A stretch of 59,956 nt of DNA from Escherichia phage vB_EcoS_ESCO3, in sequence record OM386652.1; one strand, given 5' to 3'. The position numbers and the translations under genes were made by a program. The first letter of the stretch is position 1. Each line of letters starts with the position of its first letter. Positions 2,010 to 29,807 of this stretch are shown piece by piece. The notes below the pieces were generated by a model that did not search any database, had not been told where the DNA came from, and saw only the letters and a list, made by a program, of their open reading frames with translations.

Positions 2010-3007
2010 AGACGAAATCCTACAATTACCCCACGTAGATTTTCACCATAAAAAATAATAGGAGTTGAAAGACCCCTTTCGTCCTTTTCATTGAAACGAG
2101 AAGCATCCCAATTCGTTGCAAGTCCTTTCAACTGCATAATAAGATCTATATTATACACGCCAATTGACTTAGATTCCCGGAACATTGCACTAGCACCGTC
2201 CAGCTCGTTGTAATGGGTACGCACAACACCATTTTCCATGTAAATACGCCCATCCCGCTCACAGAACGGTTTTATCTTTTCTAGGCAATTAAAAAGCTCA
2301 GTATCAAGCGTATAAACGTTGGCCCCATTTTCTGTACGCTCAATTATCTTATCAATGTTAGGCCACTTTAATTCCAGCAATTGTGTACGCAACCAGCAAC
2401 CGTCTTCGTAGTGAAATGTCATACTGGTATCTGTACATTGAATTCTTACTGGTGGTTTTTTAATACGCAATAATTCTTTTATGGCCATGCGTGGCACAAC
2501 ACAATCGACAGGGAATACAGCACCGAACCAATACTGTATAATACTAGCGTTATTGGTCGCGTACATGCTGCCCTGTTTTACCAGCACGCCGCAAGACCAC
2601 GGGCGGGAAGCATCATCGCTTATAAACGGCGTTACACGGCTTAAACCGTTGAGAAAAAGCTGACCGTCTATTTCGTGAATTGTTCCTTCTGGCTCTACGT
2701 GTGCAGTTGGTTTCTGAAGAGTATCCACACTAACCTTAAAGCCACCAGACTTAATGCTCAACTTACCGTTCGCTAACATTGTCATCTGTACAGCTTCGTC
2801 ACATGCTGCAATAGCCTTGAGCATCGGTTCAGCTTTAGGAGTACAGTCAATATTCAGTGGTACTGGACTACACAATGAAATAGTTCCGTTGAACCCGCGA
2901 ACAGTGCCATCAACAATACGGAAGTGAGTTAAACCTTCCTGAAGTTCTTTCTTAGCTACAGAGCCTGATACGAATTTAAGCGCGTCTAATAATTCAATCA
3001 CAAGCAA
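2006..3007 (-). CDS. putative sliding clamp (DnaN/beta-clamp-like) polymerase accessory protein
   Basis: 333 aa. N-terminus (LLDALKFVSGSVAKKE...DGTV) and C-terminal ...VGFRL resemble the bacterial beta clamp (which ends MPMRL). Translationally coupled to the polymerase gene. Weak, by-eye similarity only. Confidence 0.4.
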   Translation of the reverse strand: MLVIELLDALKFVSGSVAKKELQEGLTHFRIVDGTVRGFNGTISLCSPVPLNIDCTPKAEPMLKAIAACDEAVQMTMLANGKLSIKSGGFKVSVDTLQKPTAHVEPEGTIHEIDGQLFLNGLSRVTPFISDDASRPWSCGVLVKQGSMYATNNASIIQYWFGAVFPVDCVVPRMAIKELLRIKKPPVRIQCTDTSMTFHYEDGCWLRTQLLELKWPNIDKIIERTENGANVYTLDTELFNCLEKIKPFCERDGRIYMENGVVRTHYNELDGASAMFRESKSIGVYNIDLIMQLKGLATNWDASRFNEKDERGLSTPIIFYGENLRGVIVGFRL

Positions 3008-3533
3008 ATTCCTTATGTAATTTTGACCTAGTGAATTTCACAAAATTGTATGCTTTTTGCAAACCTTCCCAACTATATGGAAAACGTCTTCTTATTGTTT
3101 TGCCTTTAAATGTGATTCTAGCATCCCAATATGTATATCCACTAACGTCCAACTTTGAAATACCCTTTAGACCCGACGACCTATTATTACTTTGTACACA
3201 CCTATTACAATTATTCTCGGAATAGTTTGCAGCTCGCAAATTAGAAGGTCTATTATCTGTTTTTACTCTATTTATATGTTCAACGTGGGCTGGGTAATAC
3301 CCATGTGACATACAGAAACAGAGTCTATGAACTCTATAATTTTTATAAAGCAAGCCAACTTGCAGATAACCGTCCGAAGCTATACTACCAGCCGGAGAAC
3401 CTGCTATACAATTAGGAGCCCTTGTTATCCTGTTTATTAATTGTCCTGTATTCCTATCATAAATAAAGAATTTATCAAGTATTTCTTTACAAGGTTCATC
3501 AGACTGTATTTCAAAAGGTCTTGAGAGATCCAT
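2994..3533 (-). CDS. HNH homing endonuclease
   Basis: 179 aa. His/Asn-rich HNH core (YRVHRLCFCMSHGYYPAHVEHINRVKTDNRPSNLR) and a C-terminal basic DNA-binding-like region. AT-rich relative to its neighbours. Confidence 0.65.
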   Translation of the reverse strand: MDLSRPFEIQSDEPCKEILDKFFIYDRNTGQLINRITRAPNCIAGSPAGSIASDGYLQVGLLYKNYRVHRLCFCMSHGYYPAHVEHINRVKTDNRPSNLRAANYSENNCNRCVQSNNRSSGLKGISKLDVSGYTYWDARITFKGKTIRRRFPYSWEGLQKAYNFVKFTRSKLHKEFACD

Positions 3534-3541
3534 AAGTAACC

Positions 3542-4495
3542 TTACTCGTCAAATAAATCCTGGAGACGTTCGTTGAACTTCCCATTGTGGTTAGCAAGAA
3601 TCATAGCGTTGACCACACCATACGCCCATAAATTGTATGCAGCGCGTGATTCGTATATCGTTGAAAGTCGTTCGTATGTGAAACCTGACTCCTCTAAGTA
3701 GCGTAGAACGTTATTCTGTTCTATTTCTGAAAGGTTACAGATATGCTGCCCTTGATAGTGACGTGACGGAGACTTTTCAGACACCTGCATTGGACCCCAC
3801 TTAGGCGTCTCAATAGCACCAAACGCCGCAGATTGGATCCAGGAGGATGAGTCACAGGAGTACCACGGGTAACGCTCCATAAGTGGACGGGACGTAATAC
3901 CAAATCCATGGACTTTAATCTTAGCGCGTCCGCTACCGTCCACAAGGTGTTTATCCCATACCCTGTCCAACCATACTTGAAGTTGCTGCGTACTTGCTCC
4001 AACAAGACCACCGAGCGTAATGTACTCGTAGTTCCGTACATAATGGTCAAGATACTCAAAAGGTTCACCCGCGTGGAAGCATGGTAAAGGTCTTACACCT
4101 CTGGCTTCCATCTCTTCCTGGTTACGCCATGTCTGAAGTGGGTCTCCGATACCATCAAGTACGGACGCCATAAGCGAACCATCCTCTACACGGATGATAT
4201 CTATGTTTCGTTGGATGTAATCACAGTATTCTTTAACTGATAACGTAACTCCCAAAGTGTAAGCTGAGAACGCTCCGGAGTCGAGGAATATCTTGGCCCC
4301 ATCGGCACGCATGGCATCGACATAGGATTGCTTTCCAACATAGTGCCAGGATTCAAGAATGTTTGGAATATTCTCGACAACACGTTTTTCTTGTTCGTTG
4401 AGTTTAACATAGCGGTTCATTCCTGGTTTATAGCTGTTCGTATATACGGCAGCCATATAAATCTGAAAGGTATAGTTGATATCTTGTCTGTGCAT
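3542..4495 (-). CDS. dpdA: DpdA-like DNA-guanine transglycosylase (TGT superfamily)
   Basis: 317 aa. TGT-like motif FLDSGAFS; sits next to folE/queD/queC/queE. ATG at 4495 with an upstream AGGTGA ribosome-binding site on the minus strand. Confidence 0.7.
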   Translation of the reverse strand: MHRQDINYTFQIYMAAVYTNSYKPGMNRYVKLNEQEKRVVENIPNILESWHYVGKQSYVDAMRADGAKIFLDSGAFSAYTLGVTLSVKEYCDYIQRNIDIIRVEDGSLMASVLDGIGDPLQTWRNQEEMEARGVRPLPCFHAGEPFEYLDHYVRNYEYITLGGLVGASTQQLQVWLDRVWDKHLVDGSGRAKIKVHGFGITSRPLMERYPWYSCDSSSWIQSAAFGAIETPKWGPMQVSEKSPSRHYQGQHICNLSEIEQNNVLRYLEESGFTYERLSTIYESRAAYNLWAYGVVNAMILANHNGKFNERLQDLFDE

Positions 4496-4564
4496 TGTTC
4501 ACCTAATAAATAAGCGCCCGTAGGCGCTTATTATATTAAAGATAATGTATGATTCGCAAATCAG

Positions 4565-5179
4565 TTACTTTTTACACGCTTCAAGAAATTCCCGACGCCA
4601 TGTGTCACCAGTCACGTCCGGTAATACATCATCACCCAATGCAGTACGTCCGCGGAATGCTTTAGTGATGGTTGAGCTGCCGCATACCTGTTTAACACCG
4701 CGCGACTCCATGCACATATGTTTTGCATCGATGTAAACACACACAGCTTTCGGGTCTAAGTGTTCCACGATAGCATCCGCAATCTGATTAGTCAGACGTT
4801 CTTGGACTTGCAAACGTCGAGCAAAAGCATCAACCACACGAGATAACTTACTAAGGCCAACAATTTTTCCATTCGGGACATACCCGACCACCGCATGACC
4901 AATAATAGGAGCCATATGATGCTCACAATGACTGTAGACAGGGATATCGCGGACGATGACCATTTCATTACAGTTTTCCCCACCATCTTCAAATGTCTTG
5001 AACAGGGATGCGATATCAACAGAATAACCTCCGAACCATGTAGCATAGGCCTTAGCTACACGATCTGGAGTTTCAACTAGACCTTCACGCAAGTCATCGC
5101 CACCTTCAATCAACTTTAAAATCTTTTCAATACTGTGCGAAATTTCTGCTCGGTTTGTCATCTTTGTAAATTCATTCAT
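4565..5179 (-). CDS. folE: GTP cyclohydrolase I
   Basis: 204 aa. FolE signature SHCEHHMAPIIG...GLSKLSRVVDAFARRLQVQERLTNQIA. AAGGAAA ribosome-binding site before the ATG. Confidence 0.88.
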   Translation of the reverse strand: MNEFTKMTNRAEISHSIEKILKLIEGGDDLREGLVETPDRVAKAYATWFGGYSVDIASLFKTFEDGGENCNEMVIVRDIPVYSHCEHHMAPIIGHAVVGYVPNGKIVGLSKLSRVVDAFARRLQVQERLTNQIADAIVEHLDPKAVCVYIDAKHMCMESRGVKQVCGSSTITKAFRGRTALGDDVLPDVTGDTWRREFLEACKK

Positions 5180-5205
5180 GGTTTACAGTTTCCTTGTGTG
5201 GTCAA

Positions 5206-5739
5206 TTATTTGCAATAGTTGACATGACATTTAGACGTTTCTTCAATGGTACATTCTACCAGTTCAACACCATATTGGTCAAGCAGTTGAGGACCAATCA
5301 CGTCAACCATATATGCAGCTAAGTTTTCCGCGGTCGGGTTGAATGGTAAAGCTACCAAAGAATCAAGGAACGGATCATAATCTTCATCCGTTACTAAATT
5401 GTTTTCACGTGCAAACTTAGTCGATGCAACAACAATGAGCGAATTAATCATGCTGTCTTGTTCCCAATGCAGGAACTTATGATCCCAGTTATCTTCCAAC
5501 CACTGGCAAAGCGTAGTTTTAACCACACTAAAGTCGATAACTCGGCCTACGTCATCCAGCGAACCTTCTAGAGCAAATCCACTTACAGACTTGACGTAAC
5601 CTTCCGACAATGTTTTCTTCGGGGCAACTTTAAAATGGAACTTATAGTTGTGACCGTGAAGGTGACGACACTTACTTTCATGACCTACAACACGGTGGCC
5701 AGCGCAAATCTCATGTGAACGAATAACAGTGTAACCCAT
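5206..5739 (-). CDS. queD: 6-carboxy-5,6,7,8-tetrahydropterin synthase (QueD)
   Basis: 177 aa. Zn-binding motif CAGHRVVGHESKCRHLHGHNYKF (Cx3HGH type) typical of QueD/PTPS. Confidence 0.85.
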   Translation of the reverse strand: MGYTVIRSHEICAGHRVVGHESKCRHLHGHNYKFHFKVAPKKTLSEGYVKSVSGFALEGSLDDVGRVIDFSVVKTTLCQWLEDNWDHKFLHWEQDSMINSLIVVASTKFARENNLVTDEDYDPFLDSLVALPFNPTAENLAAYMVDVIGPQLLDQYGVELVECTIEETSKCHVNYCK

Positions 5740-5741
5740 TT

Positions 5742-7157
5742 TTATTCCTCGTTTTCGTATTTAATAACTTCTTGTGCGTTATTAATATTAAACGCAGTCC
5801 GACGCATCATGCAAGGGCCACAAGTACCGCAATGCAGATCCCCGTTACGGTAACAGCTCCAGGTGTGCTCCAACGGGGCCCCTAAACGTAGGCCTGTAGC
5901 GACAATTTCGTGCTTCATTAAGTTACCTACTGGCATGAGCACTTCAACTCGCTTACCGTCCCCTACAGCGAACGGTAACACCTGATTAAAGCGGTTAATA
6001 AACTCAGGCTCGTTGTCCGGATAGGCTCCAGCTTCTTCTAAATTGTTACCAAGAACAATATAGTCGAAACCGTTAGCTTCTGCGTATGCAGTAGCAACAG
6101 AAAGCATCACAAGGTTACGAGCTGGAACCCATTCATGTGCGAACTCAGCACCTTCTTCACCGCCAGCAATTGCAGCATCTTGATCAAATAACGGGCTATC
6201 TTTCTTATCGTAAATTGGGATTGGGAATTCAACTAATGGAACTTCCATCACTTCCGCAATTTTACGAATAGCCTTCAACTCGTTAGTTTCAGCACGACAA
6301 CCATACTGGAAGTTAATCAAAGTAACATCCAAACCGTTGGACTTACACATCTGAGCTGCCACTGTGCTGTCCATACCACCACTGGCGACAACTAACGCCC
6401 GTTGAGTCTGCTTATTTGGAATAAGATCAACCTCACTGCATACACCAGTCGATGTGACCACATTACAGGTGTAAGGTTTCAACATTTGCTTAATAGCGCG
6501 GGTTGGTAGCATATCTTCCTGGCTGGCAAAATACATACCCGTGTGAGTCTTACCGATCCAAATTGGACGGTAATTACATGCTGCAAACACATACCCAGGA
6601 ATTGAATCATGCGTTGCAAGGATTGCGTAACTCCCTTTCAACTTGCGAATAACTTCGTGAAATACGTTATAAAGGTAATTTAAATCGGACAGACACATTT
6701 CATCTGTCGAAAGTGTGCATTCTGCTAGCTGTTCTACAATCGCAGCACTATCGATCTTAGTCTGTAGTGCATAGGTACGAAGGTCTTTATCGTTCGCAAT
6801 AGTACCGTTATGAACAATAGTCCAACCATCGAGATGATACGGTTGTTGATCCCATTCGTTCTTGTCAACGACCCACTCTGTAGTCGGTTCAGCGCGAGCG
6901 TTACCAATCATTGTGAAGCTACCAATAGCTCCAGCGTGAGATGCAATGCGCCCGACTTTAACAAGACGTTCCAGCGATGTTTCCTTACCGACGCTGACGA
7001 TACGTTGCGGGTGCATACTGTGGTCACCATGCGTGAAGCGTACACCAAGACCATCACGACCACGGTTAATACTAGCTTTAATAAGATCGTCAATGTCGTT
7101 ACGGATGATAAGACTTTCAGGTTGACCGTTAGTAATGACACCAAAGATAGAGCACAT
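5742..7157 (-). CDS. Gat-QueC fusion: class-II glutamine amidotransferase fused to a QueC-like PP-loop ATPase
   Basis: Start placed at the internal ATG at 7157 (MCSIFGV, N-terminal Cys nucleophile), which abuts the stop of the upstream gene at 7159. C-terminal half has PP-loop SGGMDS and a Zn-binding CGTCGPC like QueC. The track ORF extends to 7256. Confidence 0.8.
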   Translation of the reverse strand: MCSIFGVITNGQPESLIIRNDIDDLIKASINRGRDGLGVRFTHGDHSMHPQRIVSVGKETSLERLVKVGRIASHAGAIGSFTMIGNARAEPTTEWVVDKNEWDQQPYHLDGWTIVHNGTIANDKDLRTYALQTKIDSAAIVEQLAECTLSTDEMCLSDLNYLYNVFHEVIRKLKGSYAILATHDSIPGYVFAACNYRPIWIGKTHTGMYFASQEDMLPTRAIKQMLKPYTCNVVTSTGVCSEVDLIPNKQTQRALVVASGGMDSTVAAQMCKSNGLDVTLINFQYGCRAETNELKAIRKIAEVMEVPLVEFPIPIYDKKDSPLFDQDAAIAGGEEGAEFAHEWVPARNLVMLSVATAYAEANGFDYIVLGNNLEEAGAYPDNEPEFINRFNQVLPFAVGDGKRVEVLMPVGNLMKHEIVATGLRLGAPLEHTWSCYRNGDLHCGTCGPCMMRRTAFNINNAQEVIKYENEE

Positions 7158-7158
7158 A

Positions 7159-7917
7159 TTATTTACCTTCCTTAACCATTTCAATTTCACGCTCAACGGA
7201 TACAATGATATCGTTGAGGTCTTCCAGTAAGTCTTTATGTCCACGTTCACCAGCACACAGCACTTTCTTCAGTGCATGTTGCATGGGCCCACTGGTTACA
7301 TTAAATGCTTTAATTACATCGTACACGTCAACCCATACATCAATTTCAATTGGGCTACCGTTAATATCATGCGATTCAAAAGTCTTGATTTTGCGCATAT
7401 ATTTATTTGGACGTGGAGCTTTAATATCCTGGATACAATCCTTGTCGATAAACGCTTCATTAATGAATACTTCCGGATCACCTTCTTTGTTACGATCAAC
7501 TTTAAAGACGCTCGTAAGTACATCTTCCATGATACCAGCTAATTTCTGAGTAGATGTTGTGTACTTCTTCACATTTTCTGCTTCTTCTGCTGCTTTCTGA
7601 CTTCTGCTGACAGAAGTATTAATACGCCATTTATAAAGTGCATTACGTGGAGGCGTCACATGCGTGTTGTAAACTGTCTTTAAACCCATGAGATCTTGTC
7701 CATCCATACCTTCAATAAAGACAGTAAGTGTAGGACTGCTATCATTCAAGACATCTACTACATATCCTTCTCGAATTACAGATGCAAGAGCTGCATGGGA
7801 CGCAGCCTGCGAAGCTGTGGTCACATAATGTTTTACAAATCCGTCTTCATCGAACAGACACTGGTTTAACACATTTTCTGGAACGATTTTACCGAGTAAT
7901 TGAACATGCTTATTCAT
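7159..7917 (-). CDS. hypothetical protein embedded in the deazaguanine cluster
   Basis: 252 aa, tightly packed between queE and gat-queC. C-terminal segment HALKKVLCAGERGHKDLLEDL is reminiscent of a DUF3310-like motif. Function unknown. Confidence 0.5.
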   Translation of the reverse strand: MNKHVQLLGKIVPENVLNQCLFDEDGFVKHYVTTASQAASHAALASVIREGYVVDVLNDSSPTLTVFIEGMDGQDLMGLKTVYNTHVTPPRNALYKWRINTSVSRSQKAAEEAENVKKYTTSTQKLAGIMEDVLTSVFKVDRNKEGDPEVFINEAFIDKDCIQDIKAPRPNKYMRKIKTFESHDINGSPIEIDVWVDVYDVIKAFNVTSGPMQHALKKVLCAGERGHKDLLEDLNDIIVSVEREIEMVKEGK

Positions 7918-8028
7918 AACGACCTACCTTATTAGTTGAACACATTGTATCTTTTAGCACGCTTACCGTTGCCGCATAATAATCATTAGCGGCAGGAACC
8001 ATTCACGCGTTTTTGAATATGTATAACT

Positions 8029-8793
8029 TCATTCTACACCTAAATATTTGTGAACCTGCAATTGCACGATGTAATTGTGCTTCATTGCATATTTAACGAC
8101 AGCTTGAGCGTTTGCTTTATTAGCATCGTCGTCCTGTTCATCCATAGGTTGAAGATAAATCTTACCTTTAAAGTGTACAGGTGGACGTGCGATAAATGGT
8201 GTCGCACGGTGATCCAGTGCCTGCAACGGTAATCCATCTTCCTCGTTGACGTTTCCGCTTTTCATTACATATTTGAAAGCATCCGCTCGAGCGGAAACGC
8301 TAGGGTGAATCTTTGCTGCCTTAGGACTACATACTACCACACAATTATAGTTGAGTTCACGCGGGATAGGCATAGTTCCGTTAGTCTCAACCTGTACATG
8401 ATATCCTTTCATATCGATAAGGTAGTTGATAAAATTAACAACTTCAGGTTGACGGAAAGGTTCGCCACCAGTAATAACAACTAATTTAGTCTTGGCTTCA
8501 CCAGTGACACGAACAATCTCCTGCCAAATATCACCGTGACTCATCTTCTTACGATTAGACGTATAGTTTGTATCGCAACCTGGGCATTGCAAGTTGCAAC
8601 CAGCTAATCGGACAAATACGGCAGGTTGACCACAAAATGGGCCTTCGCCTTGAATGGTATGAAAAATGGAATGTACGTCAAGAATACCACGTTCACGAAC
8701 TAACTTCTCAGGATCCTGAGTATTAATAATTTTCATATGATTTCCAAATTTGGCTTGAGCCCAGTGGTGGGCGATAATGGCTTGTGCAAACAT
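8029..8793 (-). CDS. queE: 7-carboxy-7-deazaguanine synthase (QueE, radical SAM)
   Basis: Radical-SAM cluster motif FVRLAGCNLQCPGCDT and upstream IQGEGPF. Start placed at the ATG at 8793 (GAGG ribosome-binding site, 5-nt spacer); the track ORF begins at TTG 8817. Confidence 0.8.
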   Translation of the reverse strand: MFAQAIIAHHWAQAKFGNHMKIINTQDPEKLVRERGILDVHSIFHTIQGEGPFCGQPAVFVRLAGCNLQCPGCDTNYTSNRKKMSHGDIWQEIVRVTGEAKTKLVVITGGEPFRQPEVVNFINYLIDMKGYHVQVETNGTMPIPRELNYNCVVVCSPKAAKIHPSVSARADAFKYVMKSGNVNEEDGLPLQALDHRATPFIARPPVHFKGKIYLQPMDEQDDDANKANAQAVVKYAMKHNYIVQLQVHKYLGVE

Positions 8794-8861
8794 TTGAACC
8801 TCGGGGTAAGATAACAAAGGGGCAGTAAATGCCCCTTCTGAGTTTCCGAAGTGTCTACAGA

Positions 8862-9686
8862 TTACTCTGCAGATTTCTGAGACGGAATTTCTACGTTAGC
8901 GGCCGCCTGTGCAATATTAGCAGGTACTGGAACTGATACGCGACCAGTAATGCCCATGTATTTCTTCCAGCGAGCGTATTCCGCTTTGACGTTCGCTTCG
9001 TTCAGGCCTTTGTCCAGTGCAACCGGAAGAACGTAGCTGATCGGTGCAGTCTGGCCCAGCTCCAGTGTGACAGCGTCAAAGATATCCCATGCAGCACGGC
9101 ACAGAGTGCCAACACCAGGCTTACGAATACCATTCTGTTCCGGCTCTTTCTTAGCTTCACGTTCTGCCGCTTTACGAGCGCGCTCTTCGTCTTGCAGACG
9201 TTTCTTCTCAGCGCGTTCTGCGTCACGTTGCGCTTTTTCAGCGGCTTTAGTGGCTTCGCGGGCAGCGGATACACGACCTTTAACATCTTTCAAAGTGGAT
9301 TCAATACCAGAAACCAGATCTTCAGATGCTGTAACGGCAGTTTTCAGTTGATCGTTGTCTTTAACTTTACGTGCTGCCGCTTTAACAGCTTTCAGACCTT
9401 CTTTAGCGGTCTTCAGTTGAGCGGTAACTACACCTTCAACTGCTTTAACTTCGTCCAGCAACGAACCTTCGTTCAGGGTCGCGAACTGTTCTTTAACAGC
9501 GGACACAGCACCTTCGATTACATTGTAACCGGCAGTAGCTTCGTTCATTGCCGCGTCAACTTTAGCCTGCAATTCACGTGCTGCTTTTTCTTCAGCTTCA
9601 CGTTTTTTCTTTGCTTCAGCTTCTTTTGCTGCTTTCTTTGCTGCTTCTTCTGCTTCCAGTTGCTCTGGAGTTTTCTCTTTAGCCAT
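8862..9686 (-). CDS. hypothetical protein, Lys/Ala/Glu-rich coiled-coil
   Basis: 274 aa. Highly charged alpha-helical N-terminal two thirds, globular C-terminus. No catalytic motif recognised. Confidence 0.5.
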   Translation of the reverse strand: MAKEKTPEQLEAEEAAKKAAKEAEAKKKREAEEKAARELQAKVDAAMNEATAGYNVIEGAVSAVKEQFATLNEGSLLDEVKAVEGVVTAQLKTAKEGLKAVKAAARKVKDNDQLKTAVTASEDLVSGIESTLKDVKGRVSAAREATKAAEKAQRDAERAEKKRLQDEERARKAAEREAKKEPEQNGIRKPGVGTLCRAAWDIFDAVTLELGQTAPISYVLPVALDKGLNEANVKAEYARWKKYMGITGRVSVPVPANIAQAAANVEIPSQKSAE

Positions 9687-10798: not shown

Positions 10799-12757
10799 TT
10801 ACCAGTAAGAATAGGTTGATNAGNNGNANAANNGNAATACTGTCGTACGGGAATCAGTCTGCTCATCTTCATCAAACTTATTCGTATAACTGCCACCAAA
10901 CTGGGACAGACCATTCATTGCTGCAATTTGTACAACCGGACGTTCGTTTGTTGCTTCTTTCTTACCGAACTCACTACCGTCATAACAACTATTCAACACT
11001 TCGGGGAACTTACCCTTCAAGTTGACATAAATGTGCGTCGGTACACGAAGCTGGCTGACCACATTGAGGGCTTCGTCAATGTTAGCTGGGATTGCCAAGC
11101 TGCAATGCTCGCGCCACCAGTTACGCGCTTTCTTACCTGCAAAGCCAGTATGGAACAGGCAGATGTATTGTTGAATAGTTTGTGAGCCACAAAGATAATC
11201 AACACGAAGTGTCGGTGGCTTAGAACGGTCACCCCTGTTCTCGTGACGATAGTAACTCACCATATCAACTTTCAACACTTCAGTAACTGGTAAATCATTC
11301 TTGATAATAGCTTTCGTACTTGCACTCGCCATCAGTTTCTTCTCAAAAGTAAACTCATGACCGCAATAACCAGCACGACACGCTTTATTATTTGTAATGG
11401 TATAACCTAATCCTTGTAGATAGAGTATTTCTTCATGAGACATGCTGCTTGTGTCGAATGGTTTTAACCCACCACAGTAGCGAACTGACGCATGGTTCCA
11501 TGTCTTACATACCGGGCATTCTTTGACAGGTGCAGCGGATTTTCCTTTCTGTCCTGGACGCTTAGGAATTACAGGGTCGTTAATAGGCCCAAGACGTCTC
11601 GTATTGCCTGCGTAATCCAATACAAGACAGTTCTGTTTGTGCGAAGCCGAGATAGCTTGCAAACGACCTTCCGTTGTGGTCAGATCAAAACCATCAGCAT
11701 AATCAGGTCGAGTACCACGTCCAAGCATTTGAACCCATAGGCGGGAAGATTGAGACGGTCGCATACCAATTATTAAGTCAAGACCCGGATGGTCAAAACC
11801 TGTCGTTAATACGTTGTTGTTCGCTATTGCCTGCAAACGACCAGCTTTAAAGTCAATAAGGTACTGGTCACGCAAGGCTTTCGGTGTATCACCAGTTACA
11901 ACTTCACAACTAATACCGCGCTCATTGAGATAGTCTTTGACATCTTTTGCATGGTCTACACCAGCGCAAAAGATAAGCCAACTCATTCTATTCTCTTCTT
12001 CCGCAATACTAATTGCATCATCTAATAAATGGCGCGTTACATCAGGGTCATTTACAACCTTCTGAAGTTCACTTTCAATGAACTCACCGCCTCGAGTATG
12101 AACACCACTTACATCATACTCTTTCTTTGTTTTACGTGGTACTAACGGAACCAGATAACCTTCATCAATGAACCAGTTGAAGCACTCTACGGTACACGCG
12201 TTAAATACAATTTCATCAAATAGAGCGTTAGGTGCATAATCATCCTTGATAATAGAACCAAAACCAAGACGCCAACTTGTAGCAGTGAGACCGATAATCT
12301 TTAGATATGGATTCTTTTCACGAATCTGCGCAAAGAACTTCTGATAACTTGTTTGCTGATTTGGACTAATAAGGTCACATTCGTCAACTATAATAATATC
12401 AACGTCCTCAAAGTATTTAGCTTGTTTTGCAACAGACTGAATACCTGCGAACGTTATCATTGCGTTCTTATCTTTGCGACCCATACCAGCACTATAAATA
12501 CCAGTCGGTGCTTCAGGCCACAACTTCTTGAATTTATCGTGGTTCTGGTCTATCAATTCTTTTACGTGAGTAATTACCATCATGCGGGTACTACCCCAAT
12601 TATCATGAATTGTCTTTAATAGACCAGCAATTACAAGGGACTTACCAGTCCCTGTAGGCAACAAGATAACAGGATTTCCTGACTTTTCACCATGCTTGAT
12701 GAAATAGCGCAATGTACTATTTACAGCTTCTTGCTGATAATCACGTAGTTTGAACAT
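10799..12757 (-). CDS. SF2 DNA helicase (DEAD/DEAH-box type) with C-terminal Cys-rich region
   Basis: 652 aa. Walker A LLPTGTGKS, DExD box IIVDECDL, arginine finger QMLGRGTRP. The 3' end of the gene spans ambiguous bases (N at 10821-10835), so the C-terminus is uncertain. Confidence 0.7.
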   Translation of the reverse strand: MFKLRDYQQEAVNSTLRYFIKHGEKSGNPVILLPTGTGKSLVIAGLLKTIHDNWGSTRMMVITHVKELIDQNHDKFKKLWPEAPTGIYSAGMGRKDKNAMITFAGIQSVAKQAKYFEDVDIIIVDECDLISPNQQTSYQKFFAQIREKNPYLKIIGLTATSWRLGFGSIIKDDYAPNALFDEIVFNACTVECFNWFIDEGYLVPLVPRKTKKEYDVSGVHTRGGEFIESELQKVVNDPDVTRHLLDDAISIAEEENRMSWLIFCAGVDHAKDVKDYLNERGISCEVVTGDTPKALRDQYLIDFKAGRLQAIANNNVLTTGFDHPGLDLIIGMRPSQSSRLWVQMLGRGTRPDYADGFDLTTTEGRLQAISASHKQNCLVLDYAGNTRRLGPINDPVIPKRPGQKGKSAAPVKECPVCKTWNHASVRYCGGLKPFDTSSMSHEEILYLQGLGYTITNNKACRAGYCGHEFTFEKKLMASASTKAIIKNDLPVTEVLKVDMVSYYRHENRGDRSKPPTLRVDYLCGSQTIQQYICLFHTGFAGKKARNWWREHCSLAIPANIDEALNVVSQLRVPTHIYVNLKGKFPEVLNSCYDGSEFGKKEATNERPVVQIAAMNGLSQFGGSYTNKFDEDEQTDSRTTVXXXXXXSTYSYW

Positions 12758-29501: not shown

Positions 29502-29807
29502 TTATTGTTGAATAGCTTTAGCTATCATTGTGATGAAGCAGAACACAGACCAAANGCTATTCGCTTGGCATACTGGGCGACCATACATTACGCTATAAGA
29601 GCTGACAGTGCCGTCTTCGTTAATGCGAACGTATAACGCGGTGCTGGAATATTTTTCGTTGCCCGGGAGCATTACCAGATACTCATCGAAATCCCAATCC
29701 CCGTCAACCTTTTCCGCTGTAAGGCCCAGCTGATGCAGGCGCTTGCCGATAATGCGCTTAGTAATCTGAGATTGGGACATGGAACGCGGTAAGTAGATAA
29801 TGGACAT
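29502..29807 (-). CDS. hypothetical small early protein (family A, copy 2)
   Basis: Start placed at the ATG at 29807 (MSIIYLPRS) with a GGGAG ribosome-binding site; the track ORF extends to 29861. Contains one ambiguous base (N at 29565). Confidence 0.45.
   Translation of the reverse strand: MSIIYLPRSMSQSQITKRIIGKRLHQLGLTAEKVDGDWDFDEYLVMLPGNEKYSSTALYVRINEDGTVSSYSVMYGRPVCQANSXWSVFCFITMIAKAIQQ

Follow-up and report, generated by a model that had tools for sequence, protein, structure and literature searches.

What does the block of six genes at positions 3542-8817 of Escherichia phage vB_EcoS_ESCO3 (GenBank OM386652; Nonagvirus) make, and into which nucleic acid is the product built? The original prediction, drawn from the whole 59,956-nucleotide stretch of DNA that was analysed (hereafter the window), held that these genes form a complete 7-deazaguanine DNA-modification cluster. 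The deoxyarchaeosine (dG+) pathway of Nonagvirus is already known; it was discovered in phage 9g and has been dissected genetically and chemically. Primers published for ESCO3 match the window and yield the 729-bp product given for them. The paper describing ESCO3 itself never mentions modification. We consider it highly probable, at roughly 93%, that the module is the dG+ hypermodification set of ESCO3, orthologous to that of 9g. The set of genes, their motifs, the families they fall into and their close match to 9g were observed in ESCO3, and the enzymatic activities, dG+ and restriction resistance would follow by analogy with 9g.

All six open reading frames, encoding DpdA, FolE, QueD, Gat-QueC, a 252-aa protein and QueE, were found where they had been placed, on the minus strand, to which all coordinates below refer. 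[quoted passage not shown] PHROGs gives names to all five enzymes, the Pfam support for FolE, QueD, Gat-QueC and QueE is far above chance, and the catalytic motifs are intact in all cluster enzymes. Each of the motifs quoted in the original prediction for FolE, QueD, QueE and the PP-loop was located.

The gene order is that of 9g, JenP2 and ChristophMerian. In 9g (KJ419279; PMC6884629), the order dpdA-folE-queD-gat-queC-hyp-queE and the orientation are as in ESCO3, both clusters lie beside DNA polymerase and clamp genes, and the same ORF is found between gat-queC and queE. Two differences separate the ESCO3 and 9g clusters: an additional gene for an HNH endonuclease, located between clamp gene and dpdA, and the 252-aa ORF, which is only 88% identical. 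JenP2, another Nonagvirus and the nearest relative among the sequenced phages of the collection, lacks the HNH gene. The DNA identity of the cluster was 95.7% to JenP2 over 100% of its length and 93.5% to 9g over 99%, and each of the five enzymes is 95-100% identical to its 9g counterpart at the protein level. FolE is nearer to 9g (99%) than to JenP2 (87%), a mixture that marks the cluster as a recombinational mosaic.

The folE gene (4565-5179) encodes a GTP cyclohydrolase I of 204 aa, which passes the curated NCBIfam cut-off (TIGR00063, 196.3 bits against 181.6) and matches PF01227 at 6e-63 (211.9 bits against a cut-off of 27); its CEHHM and GLSK motifs are at 4913-4927 and 4847-4858. The queD gene (5206-5739) encodes a 6-carboxytetrahydropterin synthase of 177 aa, 98.9% identical to 9g QueD, with the CxxxHGH motif in the form CRHLHGH (5650-5670). 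QueD matches PF01242 (PTPS) at 9e-21 (74.5 bits against a cut-off of 22.4) and phrog_2389 at 3e-55. Its match to TIGR03367 (3e-17, 62.8 bits) falls under the cut-off of 89.25, probably because QueD has about 50 inserted aa compared with the Pfam model. The queE gene (8029-8793) encodes a radical-SAM 7-carboxy-7-deazaguanine synthase of 254 aa, 97.2% identical to 9g QueE, with the CxxxCxxC cluster CNLQCPGC at 8575-8598. It was matched by Radical_SAM (1.9e-11), Fer4_12 and phrog_2076 (2e-70), and its best five NCBIfam matches are all QueE equivalogs (9e-27 to 1e-20), each under its own cut-off. [quoted passage not shown]

The queE frame reaches at its maximum to TTG 8817, and we place the start probably at ATG 8793, which is preceded by a GAGG site and is the start annotated in 9g and JenP2. 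ATG 8793 is favoured because TTG 8817 falls inside a hairpin (8816-8838; 9-bp stem with 5 G-C pairs), found by the consensus scan between the upstream 274-aa gene and queE. This hairpin may be a terminator or may form the upstream limit of the cluster transcript. Because scanning the cluster for promoters and terminators gave no more than the shuffled expectation, we claim no operon structure.

The gat-queC gene (5742-7157) encodes a 471-aa fusion of a class-II glutamine amidotransferase with QueC, a preQ0/archaeosine synthase. PF06508 (QueC) is covered over its full model (5e-56), the protein scores 150 bits against TIGR00364, and phrog_10428 matches it end to end (8e-286). The PP-loop SGGMDS is at 6366-6383 and a C-terminal Cys cluster, CYRNGDLHCGTCGPC, at 5811-5855. 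In Pfam, the amidotransferase domain is matched by GATase_7 (4.7e-6) and GATase_6 (2.4e-4). The protein is 99.4% identical to that of JenP2 and 95.1% to that of 9g, the lowest value against 9g among the five enzymes. The listed ORF extends to GTG 7256. The N-terminal Cys claimed in the original prediction for the class-II amidotransferase requires the internal ATG 7157 as the start, and we corrected the start to this codon (MCSIFGV), where the Cys comes right after the initiator Met (7152-7157), as in the class-II (Ntn) type. A ribosome-binding site, AAGGAAGG, precedes ATG 7157, which lies one base past the stop of the upstream ORF. The same protein of ChristophMerian is annotated as 'dPreQ0 and archaeosine synthase Gat-QueC'.

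The dpdA gene (3542-4495) encodes a predicted DNA-guanine transglycosylase of subfamily DpdA1 (317 aa). The protein is 100% identical to both the 9g and JenP2 proteins, and the gene differs from its relatives by silent substitutions only, which indicates strong purifying selection. It contains two conserved aspartates in TGT-like motifs, the predicted catalytic residues Asp72 (FLDSGAF, 4268-4282) and Asp215 (SCDSSSW, 3842-3856), which we take to be catalytic by TGT enzymology. The DpdA family counts 5,757 members; among 63 diverse relatives, Asp215 (DSSSW) is invariant and Asp72 (DSGAF) is conserved in at least 90%. The two motifs line up with 'DCGAF' and 'DSTT' of the Salmonella DpdA (PDB 7ui4) and, in E. 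coli Tgt, with 'TDSGGFQ'; 'DSGAF' fits the bacterial DpdA/TGT motif 'D(S/C)G(A/G)F', and the alignment also covers the GG...HG.G...DS(S/T) motifs.

The family searches, however, placed FolE, QueD, QueC and QueE as the original prediction had proposed and connected DpdA to the TGT superfamily through weak links. DpdA had no match in Pfam, including the TGT model PF01702, or in NCBIfam; none of the 63 relatives matched in Pfam; PADLOC gave no link to TGT; and neither phmmer nor a shallow profile found anything in the PDB. With the diverse DpdA profile, 7ui4 ranked second in the PDB at a non-significant E of 0.24, and hhalign of DpdA against E. coli Tgt gave a probability of 2-3%. Thus no significant sequence match was obtained to the TGT family (PF01702), a solved DpdA or a solved TGT, the similarity to the bacterial DpdA and TGT proteins lying under significance. 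The AlphaFold model from a 27-sequence alignment was poor (pLDDT 55), and the invariant columns of the diverse alignment showed no evident Cys/His zinc-site pattern. Taken together, the fold and profile matches to 7ui4 and the conserved Asp72 and Asp215 are weak but convergent in pointing to the TGT superfamily; the ESCO3 enzyme may share a predicted TIM-barrel fold and the base-exchange chemistry with 7ui4, TGT and arcTGT. The proposed insertion of a 7-deazaguanine into DNA, as in 9g, gains from the identity of the two proteins, as 9g DpdA inserts preQ0 into DNA by experiment (PMC6884629), and the same guanine exchange is expected of the ESCO3 protein. Phage DpdA works without DpdB and modifies far more G than the bacterial Dpd system (PMC10516641). 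Some DpdA relatives are long and were suspected of carrying inteins; they gave no Pfam intein match, and the intein reading is drawn from junction residues alone.

From these assignments the following pathway can be proposed. FolE, QueD and QueE would convert GTP through H2NTP and CPH4 to 7-carboxy-7-deazaguanine, from which the QueC half of Gat-QueC would form preQ0 with ATP. DpdA, as a TIM-barrel transglycosylase distantly akin to tRNA-guanine transglycosylases, would then swap guanine for the 7-deazaguanine base in duplex DNA after its replication. With ammonia supplied by its amidotransferase half, Gat-QueC would turn the nitrile into the formamidine of archaeosine, before or after insertion. 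About a quarter of the G positions would become dG+, blocking many type I and type II restriction enzymes. ESCO3 DNA contains 16 EcoRI, 9 BamHI and 25 EcoRV sites. In 9g, dpdA alone yields low-level dPreQ0; when dpdA is combined with gat-queC, 9-18% of the G in plasmids becomes dG+, also if the host is delta-queC, and EcoRI is blocked (PMC6884629). In 9g virion DNA, 25-27% of G is dG+ (PMC6884629; PMC10516641), and for Nonagvirus phages of the BASEL collection, in vivo resistance to restriction of types I and II has been shown (PMC8594841).

Is the description by five enzymes complete? The 252-aa ORF (7159-7917), directly upstream of gat-queC, might be a sixth working part, such as a scaffold handing the intermediate on to DpdA or a factor that targets DNA, and the five enzymes would then be an incomplete description. 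The ORF has no assigned function (phrog_18443, function unknown) and a poor structure model (pLDDT 61); sequence, profile and fold comparisons with Pfam, NCBIfam, PADLOC and the PDB gave no match. It is 98.4% identical to its JenP2 counterpart. Only Nonagvirus-like phages carry its N-terminal half (about 1-150), which occurs in Nonagvirus records alone and is absent from the QueC-only Seuratvirus phages. In Gat-QueC-bearing enterobacterial Queuovirinae, this domain holds its place between queE and gat-queC at identities as low as about 29-40%, and in a Klebsiella Gat-QueC phage an ORF consisting of this domain only fills the slot. Relatives keep the slot beside gat-queC at only about 40% identity of the ORF, with start and stop codons abutting or overlapping, and the ORF is probably translationally coupled to gat-queC. 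A working role would also suit the unexplained channelling of preQ0 from Gat-QueC to DpdA noted in the literature (PMC6884629).

Against this, the conserved position is weak evidence, as synteny in these phages extends over the entire replication module, and the ChristophMerian cluster holds other small ORFs, so that unrelated inserts are tolerated. The C-terminal half (about 165-250), with the motif NKYMR...VDVYDV...QHALKK...G.RGHKD, is a widespread phage domain present in 755 phage records, many of them without deazaguanine genes. In BFVD it turned up repeatedly in phage proteins that are uncharacterised; some of these bear the label 'terminase', 'ATPase' or 'DNA ligase'. A possible resemblance to the phage domain DUF3310 was dropped, as Pfam gave no match. 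In Alteromonas phage R7M the ORF is absent and queE abuts gat-queC directly, and in E. coli the two 9g genes dpdA and gat-queC are enough by themselves for a high level of dG+ (PMC6884629). We therefore rejected the ORF as an obligatory part of the pathway, and by analogy with 9g it would not be needed for dG+ synthesis. A sixth working part is thus unlikely, and it is just as doubtful that the protein is an accessory factor of the dG+ pathway, either channelling preQ0 from Gat-QueC to DpdA or tuning the extent or pattern of modification.

Less probable still is that the cluster inserts dPreQ0 or dADG, the amidotransferase half of Gat-QueC being inactive or different in ESCO3. The modest GATase scores in Pfam (4.7e-6), the position of Gat-QueC as the enzyme least conserved against 9g and the dPreQ0 made by 9g dpdA alone are all compatible with it, and the original prediction had left dADG open beside dG+. 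Against it, the nucleophile Cys at the N-terminus is intact, as is the ribosome-binding site, the protein is nearly identical to that of JenP2, and the phrog_10428 match runs end to end. Across phages, moreover, Gat-QueC goes with dG+ and dADG with other enzymes (PMC6884629; PMC10516641), and Gat-QueC in place of QueC gives dG+ across the genus (PMC6884629; PMC10516641; PMC8594841). Because dpdA and gat-queC of 9g suffice for dG+, we expect dG+ in ESCO3 as well; that half of the original prediction stands, and dADG was dropped. The reading that the genes modify tRNA of host or phage (queuosine or archaeosine) has hardly any probability left: in deposited annotations and in PHROGs, DpdA goes under the name queuine tRNA-ribosyltransferase, and older database names read 'queuosine tRNA-ribosyltransferase', but the Pfam TGT model does not match it, and 9g dpdA, whose identical product ESCO3 encodes, fails to complement E. 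coli delta-tgt, as gat-queC fails to rescue tRNA queuosine in delta-queC, yet both together modify DNA (PMC6884629).

[quoted passage not shown] At the DNA level, the folE and queD genes of ESCO3 share about 76-78% identity with those of SLUR-type phages. CAjan, in contrast, has a plain QueC instead of Gat-QueC, and its product is therefore dPreQ0, with weaker protection; this QueC shares about 28% identity with the QueC half of the ESCO3 protein. The N-domain of the 252-aa ORF is also lacking.

The ESCO3 cluster brings nothing new on mechanism, and its value lies in annotation. The dG+ pathway is the defining trait of subfamily Queuovirinae, and ESCO3 is a candidate for phage therapy directed at avian-pathogenic E. 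coli. Judged by its relatives, ESCO3 DNA is almost certainly hypermodified, which would bear on its restriction resistance, restriction mapping, nanopore sequencing and host range. In the ESCO3 genome, 26.8% of G sits in GA contexts. This share would equal the measured modified fraction if DpdA targets GA, like the CAjan and iggy enzymes, an agreement that is suggestive only.

The 7-deazaguanine cluster of ESCO3 (3542-8817) is best explained as the published dG+ pathway. It consists of six tightly packed ORFs on the minus strand: a DpdA candidate (3542-4495), FolE (4565-5179; motifs CEHHM and GLSK), QueD (5206-5739; CRHLHGH), Gat-QueC (5742-7157), a 252-aa protein (7159-7917) and QueE (8029-8793, ORF maximum 8817; CNLQCPGC), separated in this order by 69, 26, 2, 1 and 111 nt. 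Gat-QueC carries SGGMDS and a C-terminal Cys cluster in its QueC half and an N-terminal Met-Cys in its amidotransferase half. All motifs quoted in the original prediction were present, each mapped to FolE, QueD, QueE or Gat-QueC.

The mechanical gat-queC ORF opens at GTG 7256. An internal ATG at 7157, which gives MCSIFGV, has a ribosome-binding site (AAGGAAGG) and lies one base past the stop of the upstream ORF. Since the nucleophile of a class-II amidotransferase must be residue 2, the start was corrected to ATG 7157. The true queE start is most likely ATG 8793, which has a GAGG site and matches the 9g and JenP2 annotation. A minus-strand hairpin (8816-8838, GAAGGGGCATTTACTGCCCCTT, 9-bp stem) between queE and a 274-aa Lys/Ala/Glu-rich gene (8862-9686) covers TTG 8817, the queE start in the mechanical ORF list, and might act as a terminator or in regulation. 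In the 69-nt folE-dpdA gap, a minus-strand promoter-like site (4530-4559; TTGCGA, 18 nt, TATAAT; 10/12 matches) suggests that dpdA could be transcribed from a separate promoter; overall, promoters in the cluster region were no more numerous than the shuffled expectation.

Pfam placed FolE (GTP_cyclohydroI, 6e-63), QueD (PTPS, 9e-21), Gat-QueC (QueC, 5e-56, plus GATase_7 and GATase_6) and QueE (Radical_SAM, 1.9e-11) in their families. In NCBIfam, FolE was above its curated cut-off, QueC scored 149.9 bits against a cut-off of 150.3, and the best five radical-SAM matches were all QueE equivalogs, each below its own cut-off. PHROGs gave strong matches for all five enzymes, DpdA matching phrog_887 'queuine tRNA-ribosyltransferase' (2e-98). 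DpdA and 63 diverse relatives, however, matched no Pfam or NCBIfam model, TGT models included, and neither phmmer nor a shallow profile found anything for DpdA in the PDB.

An exhaustive search gave a DpdA family of 5,757 representatives. With the profile of the 63 diverse relatives, 7ui4, the solved Salmonella DpdA, ranked second of 177,635 sequences (E = 0.24); the alignment pairs FLDSGAF with MGDCGAF, and GG...HGfG...SvDStsW with GG...HLLG...SIDSTTP. Comparison with E. coli Tgt by hhalign paired only DSGAF with TDSGGFQ, at 2-3% probability. Asp215 is invariant and Asp72 at least 90% conserved in the diverse alignment. The protein had been predicted to be a TGT-superfamily DpdA-like transglycosylase; direct profile support was not obtained, but the matches to 7ui4 and Tgt and the conserved aspartates, individually weak, are convergent and suggest that it belongs to this superfamily. 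Since it is 100% identical to the tested 9g DpdA, the ESCO3 protein should be a functional DpdA. Long relatives (P0188, P0193, P0199, P0206 and P0321; ~600-640 aa) carry a ~340-aa insertion past the equivalent of residue 212, which begins with Cys and ends in ...VTGN directly before the invariant Ser213-x-Asp215. Its junctions look intein-like and fall two residues ahead of the putative catalytic Asp. Pfam intein models gave no match in these relatives.

The experimental evidence comes from 9g. Its folE, queD and queE each complement the matching E. coli mutant; dpdA fails to complement delta-tgt, and tRNA queuosine is not recovered with gat-queC (PMC6884629). 9g dpdA on its own produces low-level dPreQ0 in plasmid DNA, dpdA and gat-queC together are enough for dG+ in E. 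coli, and dG+ makes up 25-27% of G in 9g virions (PMC6884629). Later papers class the 9g enzyme as DpdA1 and judge every known 7-deazaguanine DNA modification to be post-replicative (PMC10516641). In the BASEL study, dG+ is called the Nonagvirus signature, and the genus is broadly resistant in vivo to type I and II restriction (PMC8594841). The 59,956 bp of ESCO3 contain 16 EcoRI, 9 BamHI and 25 EcoRV sites, and no EcoKI site (AAC-N6-GTGC, both orientations).

In this pathway, FolE, QueD, QueE and then the QueC half of Gat-QueC would convert GTP to preQ0, DpdA would exchange bases in duplex DNA, and the Gat half would carry out the glutamine-dependent amidation to archaeosine, before or after insertion. 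The observation of the cluster was confirmed and its interpretation supported; of the two products proposed, dADG or dG+, the published 9g and Nonagvirus results point to dG+, and dADG can be set aside. The dG+ system has been described before in this genus, including an identical DpdA. In the ESCO3 genome, 26.8% of G is followed by A, a share close to the dG+ fraction of 9g and fitting the GA motif that the CAjan and iggy enzymes target; the agreement with 9g is a coincidence of size and no demonstration of a target motif.

The cluster DNA is 95.7% identical to JenP2 and 93.5% to 9g over its full length, and 17 Nonagvirus records match it over 80% or more of that length. Protein identities to 9g and JenP2, respectively, are 100% and 100% for DpdA, 99.0% and 87.3% for FolE, 98.9% and 98.3% for QueD, 95.1% and 99.4% for Gat-QueC, 88.1% and 98.4% for the 252-aa protein, and 97.2% and 98.0% for QueE. 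The contrast in these identities from gene to gene shows the cluster to be a recombinational mosaic, which implies breakpoints between queD and folE. Compared with its relatives, dpdA differs at 37-49 of 954 nucleotides with 0 amino-acid changes, an indication of strong purifying selection. The 111-nt spacer between the 252-aa ORF and queE (7918-8028; L001 8292-8646) varies, with two small ORFs in ChristophMerian, which has three further small ORFs between queD and gat-queC. The cluster therefore tolerates small insertions.

Sequence, profile and fold comparisons of the 252-aa protein, 100% identical to ESCO3_00008, retrieved nothing from Pfam, NCBIfam, PADLOC or the PDB, and its predicted model was poor. 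The protein can be divided in two. Its C-terminal part (~85 residues; invariant motif NKYxR...VDVYDV...H..KK.L..G.RGHKD) is shared by 755 phage records, most of them from phages that lack deazaguanine genes, and is encoded there either alone, as a small protein, or within a fusion. Beyond the 17 Nonagvirus records, the N-terminal part was seen only in metagenomic relatives (~40% identity), which lie in precisely this position between queE and gat-queC. In a Klebsiella phage with Gat-QueC, the position is taken by a 112-aa ORF with homology to the N-domain alone (29% identity; pairwise E 2e-7). In Alteromonas phage R7M, by contrast, queE abuts gat-queC directly. Since R7M lacks the ORF and two 9g genes suffice (PMC6884629), the protein is not essential to the chemistry, and we consider an accessory role in the pathway improbable.

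In 9g, JenP2 and ChristophMerian, 8 nt separate the clamp gene from dpdA; at this junction ESCO3 carries a minus-strand HNH endonuclease gene (2994-3533, 179 aa; PF13392, 1.2e-10; phrog_99, 4e-43). The gene runs a few bases into the start of the clamp ORF, and DpdA is unaltered by it. Among 50,697 phage records the gene had no nucleotide match, the flanks alone matching; it is probably a homing-endonuclease insertion. Neither this insertion beside dpdA nor the two domains and conserved position of the 252-aa protein was found in the literature consulted, and the ESCO3 paper, with no report of the modification, nowhere mentions deazaguanine, queuosine or archaeosine.

The record (OM386652) is a Nonagvirus isolated against avian-pathogenic E. 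coli. Nine N bases, eight mixed with called bases in a 15-nt stretch (10821-10835, tnagnngnanaanngnaata) of a helicase ORF (10799-12757) and one at 29555, look like sequencing or assembly ambiguity of the deposited record. The published ESCO3-specific PCR primers match exactly at 10937-10956 (plus) and 11646-11665 (minus), and the predicted product equals the published 729 bp.
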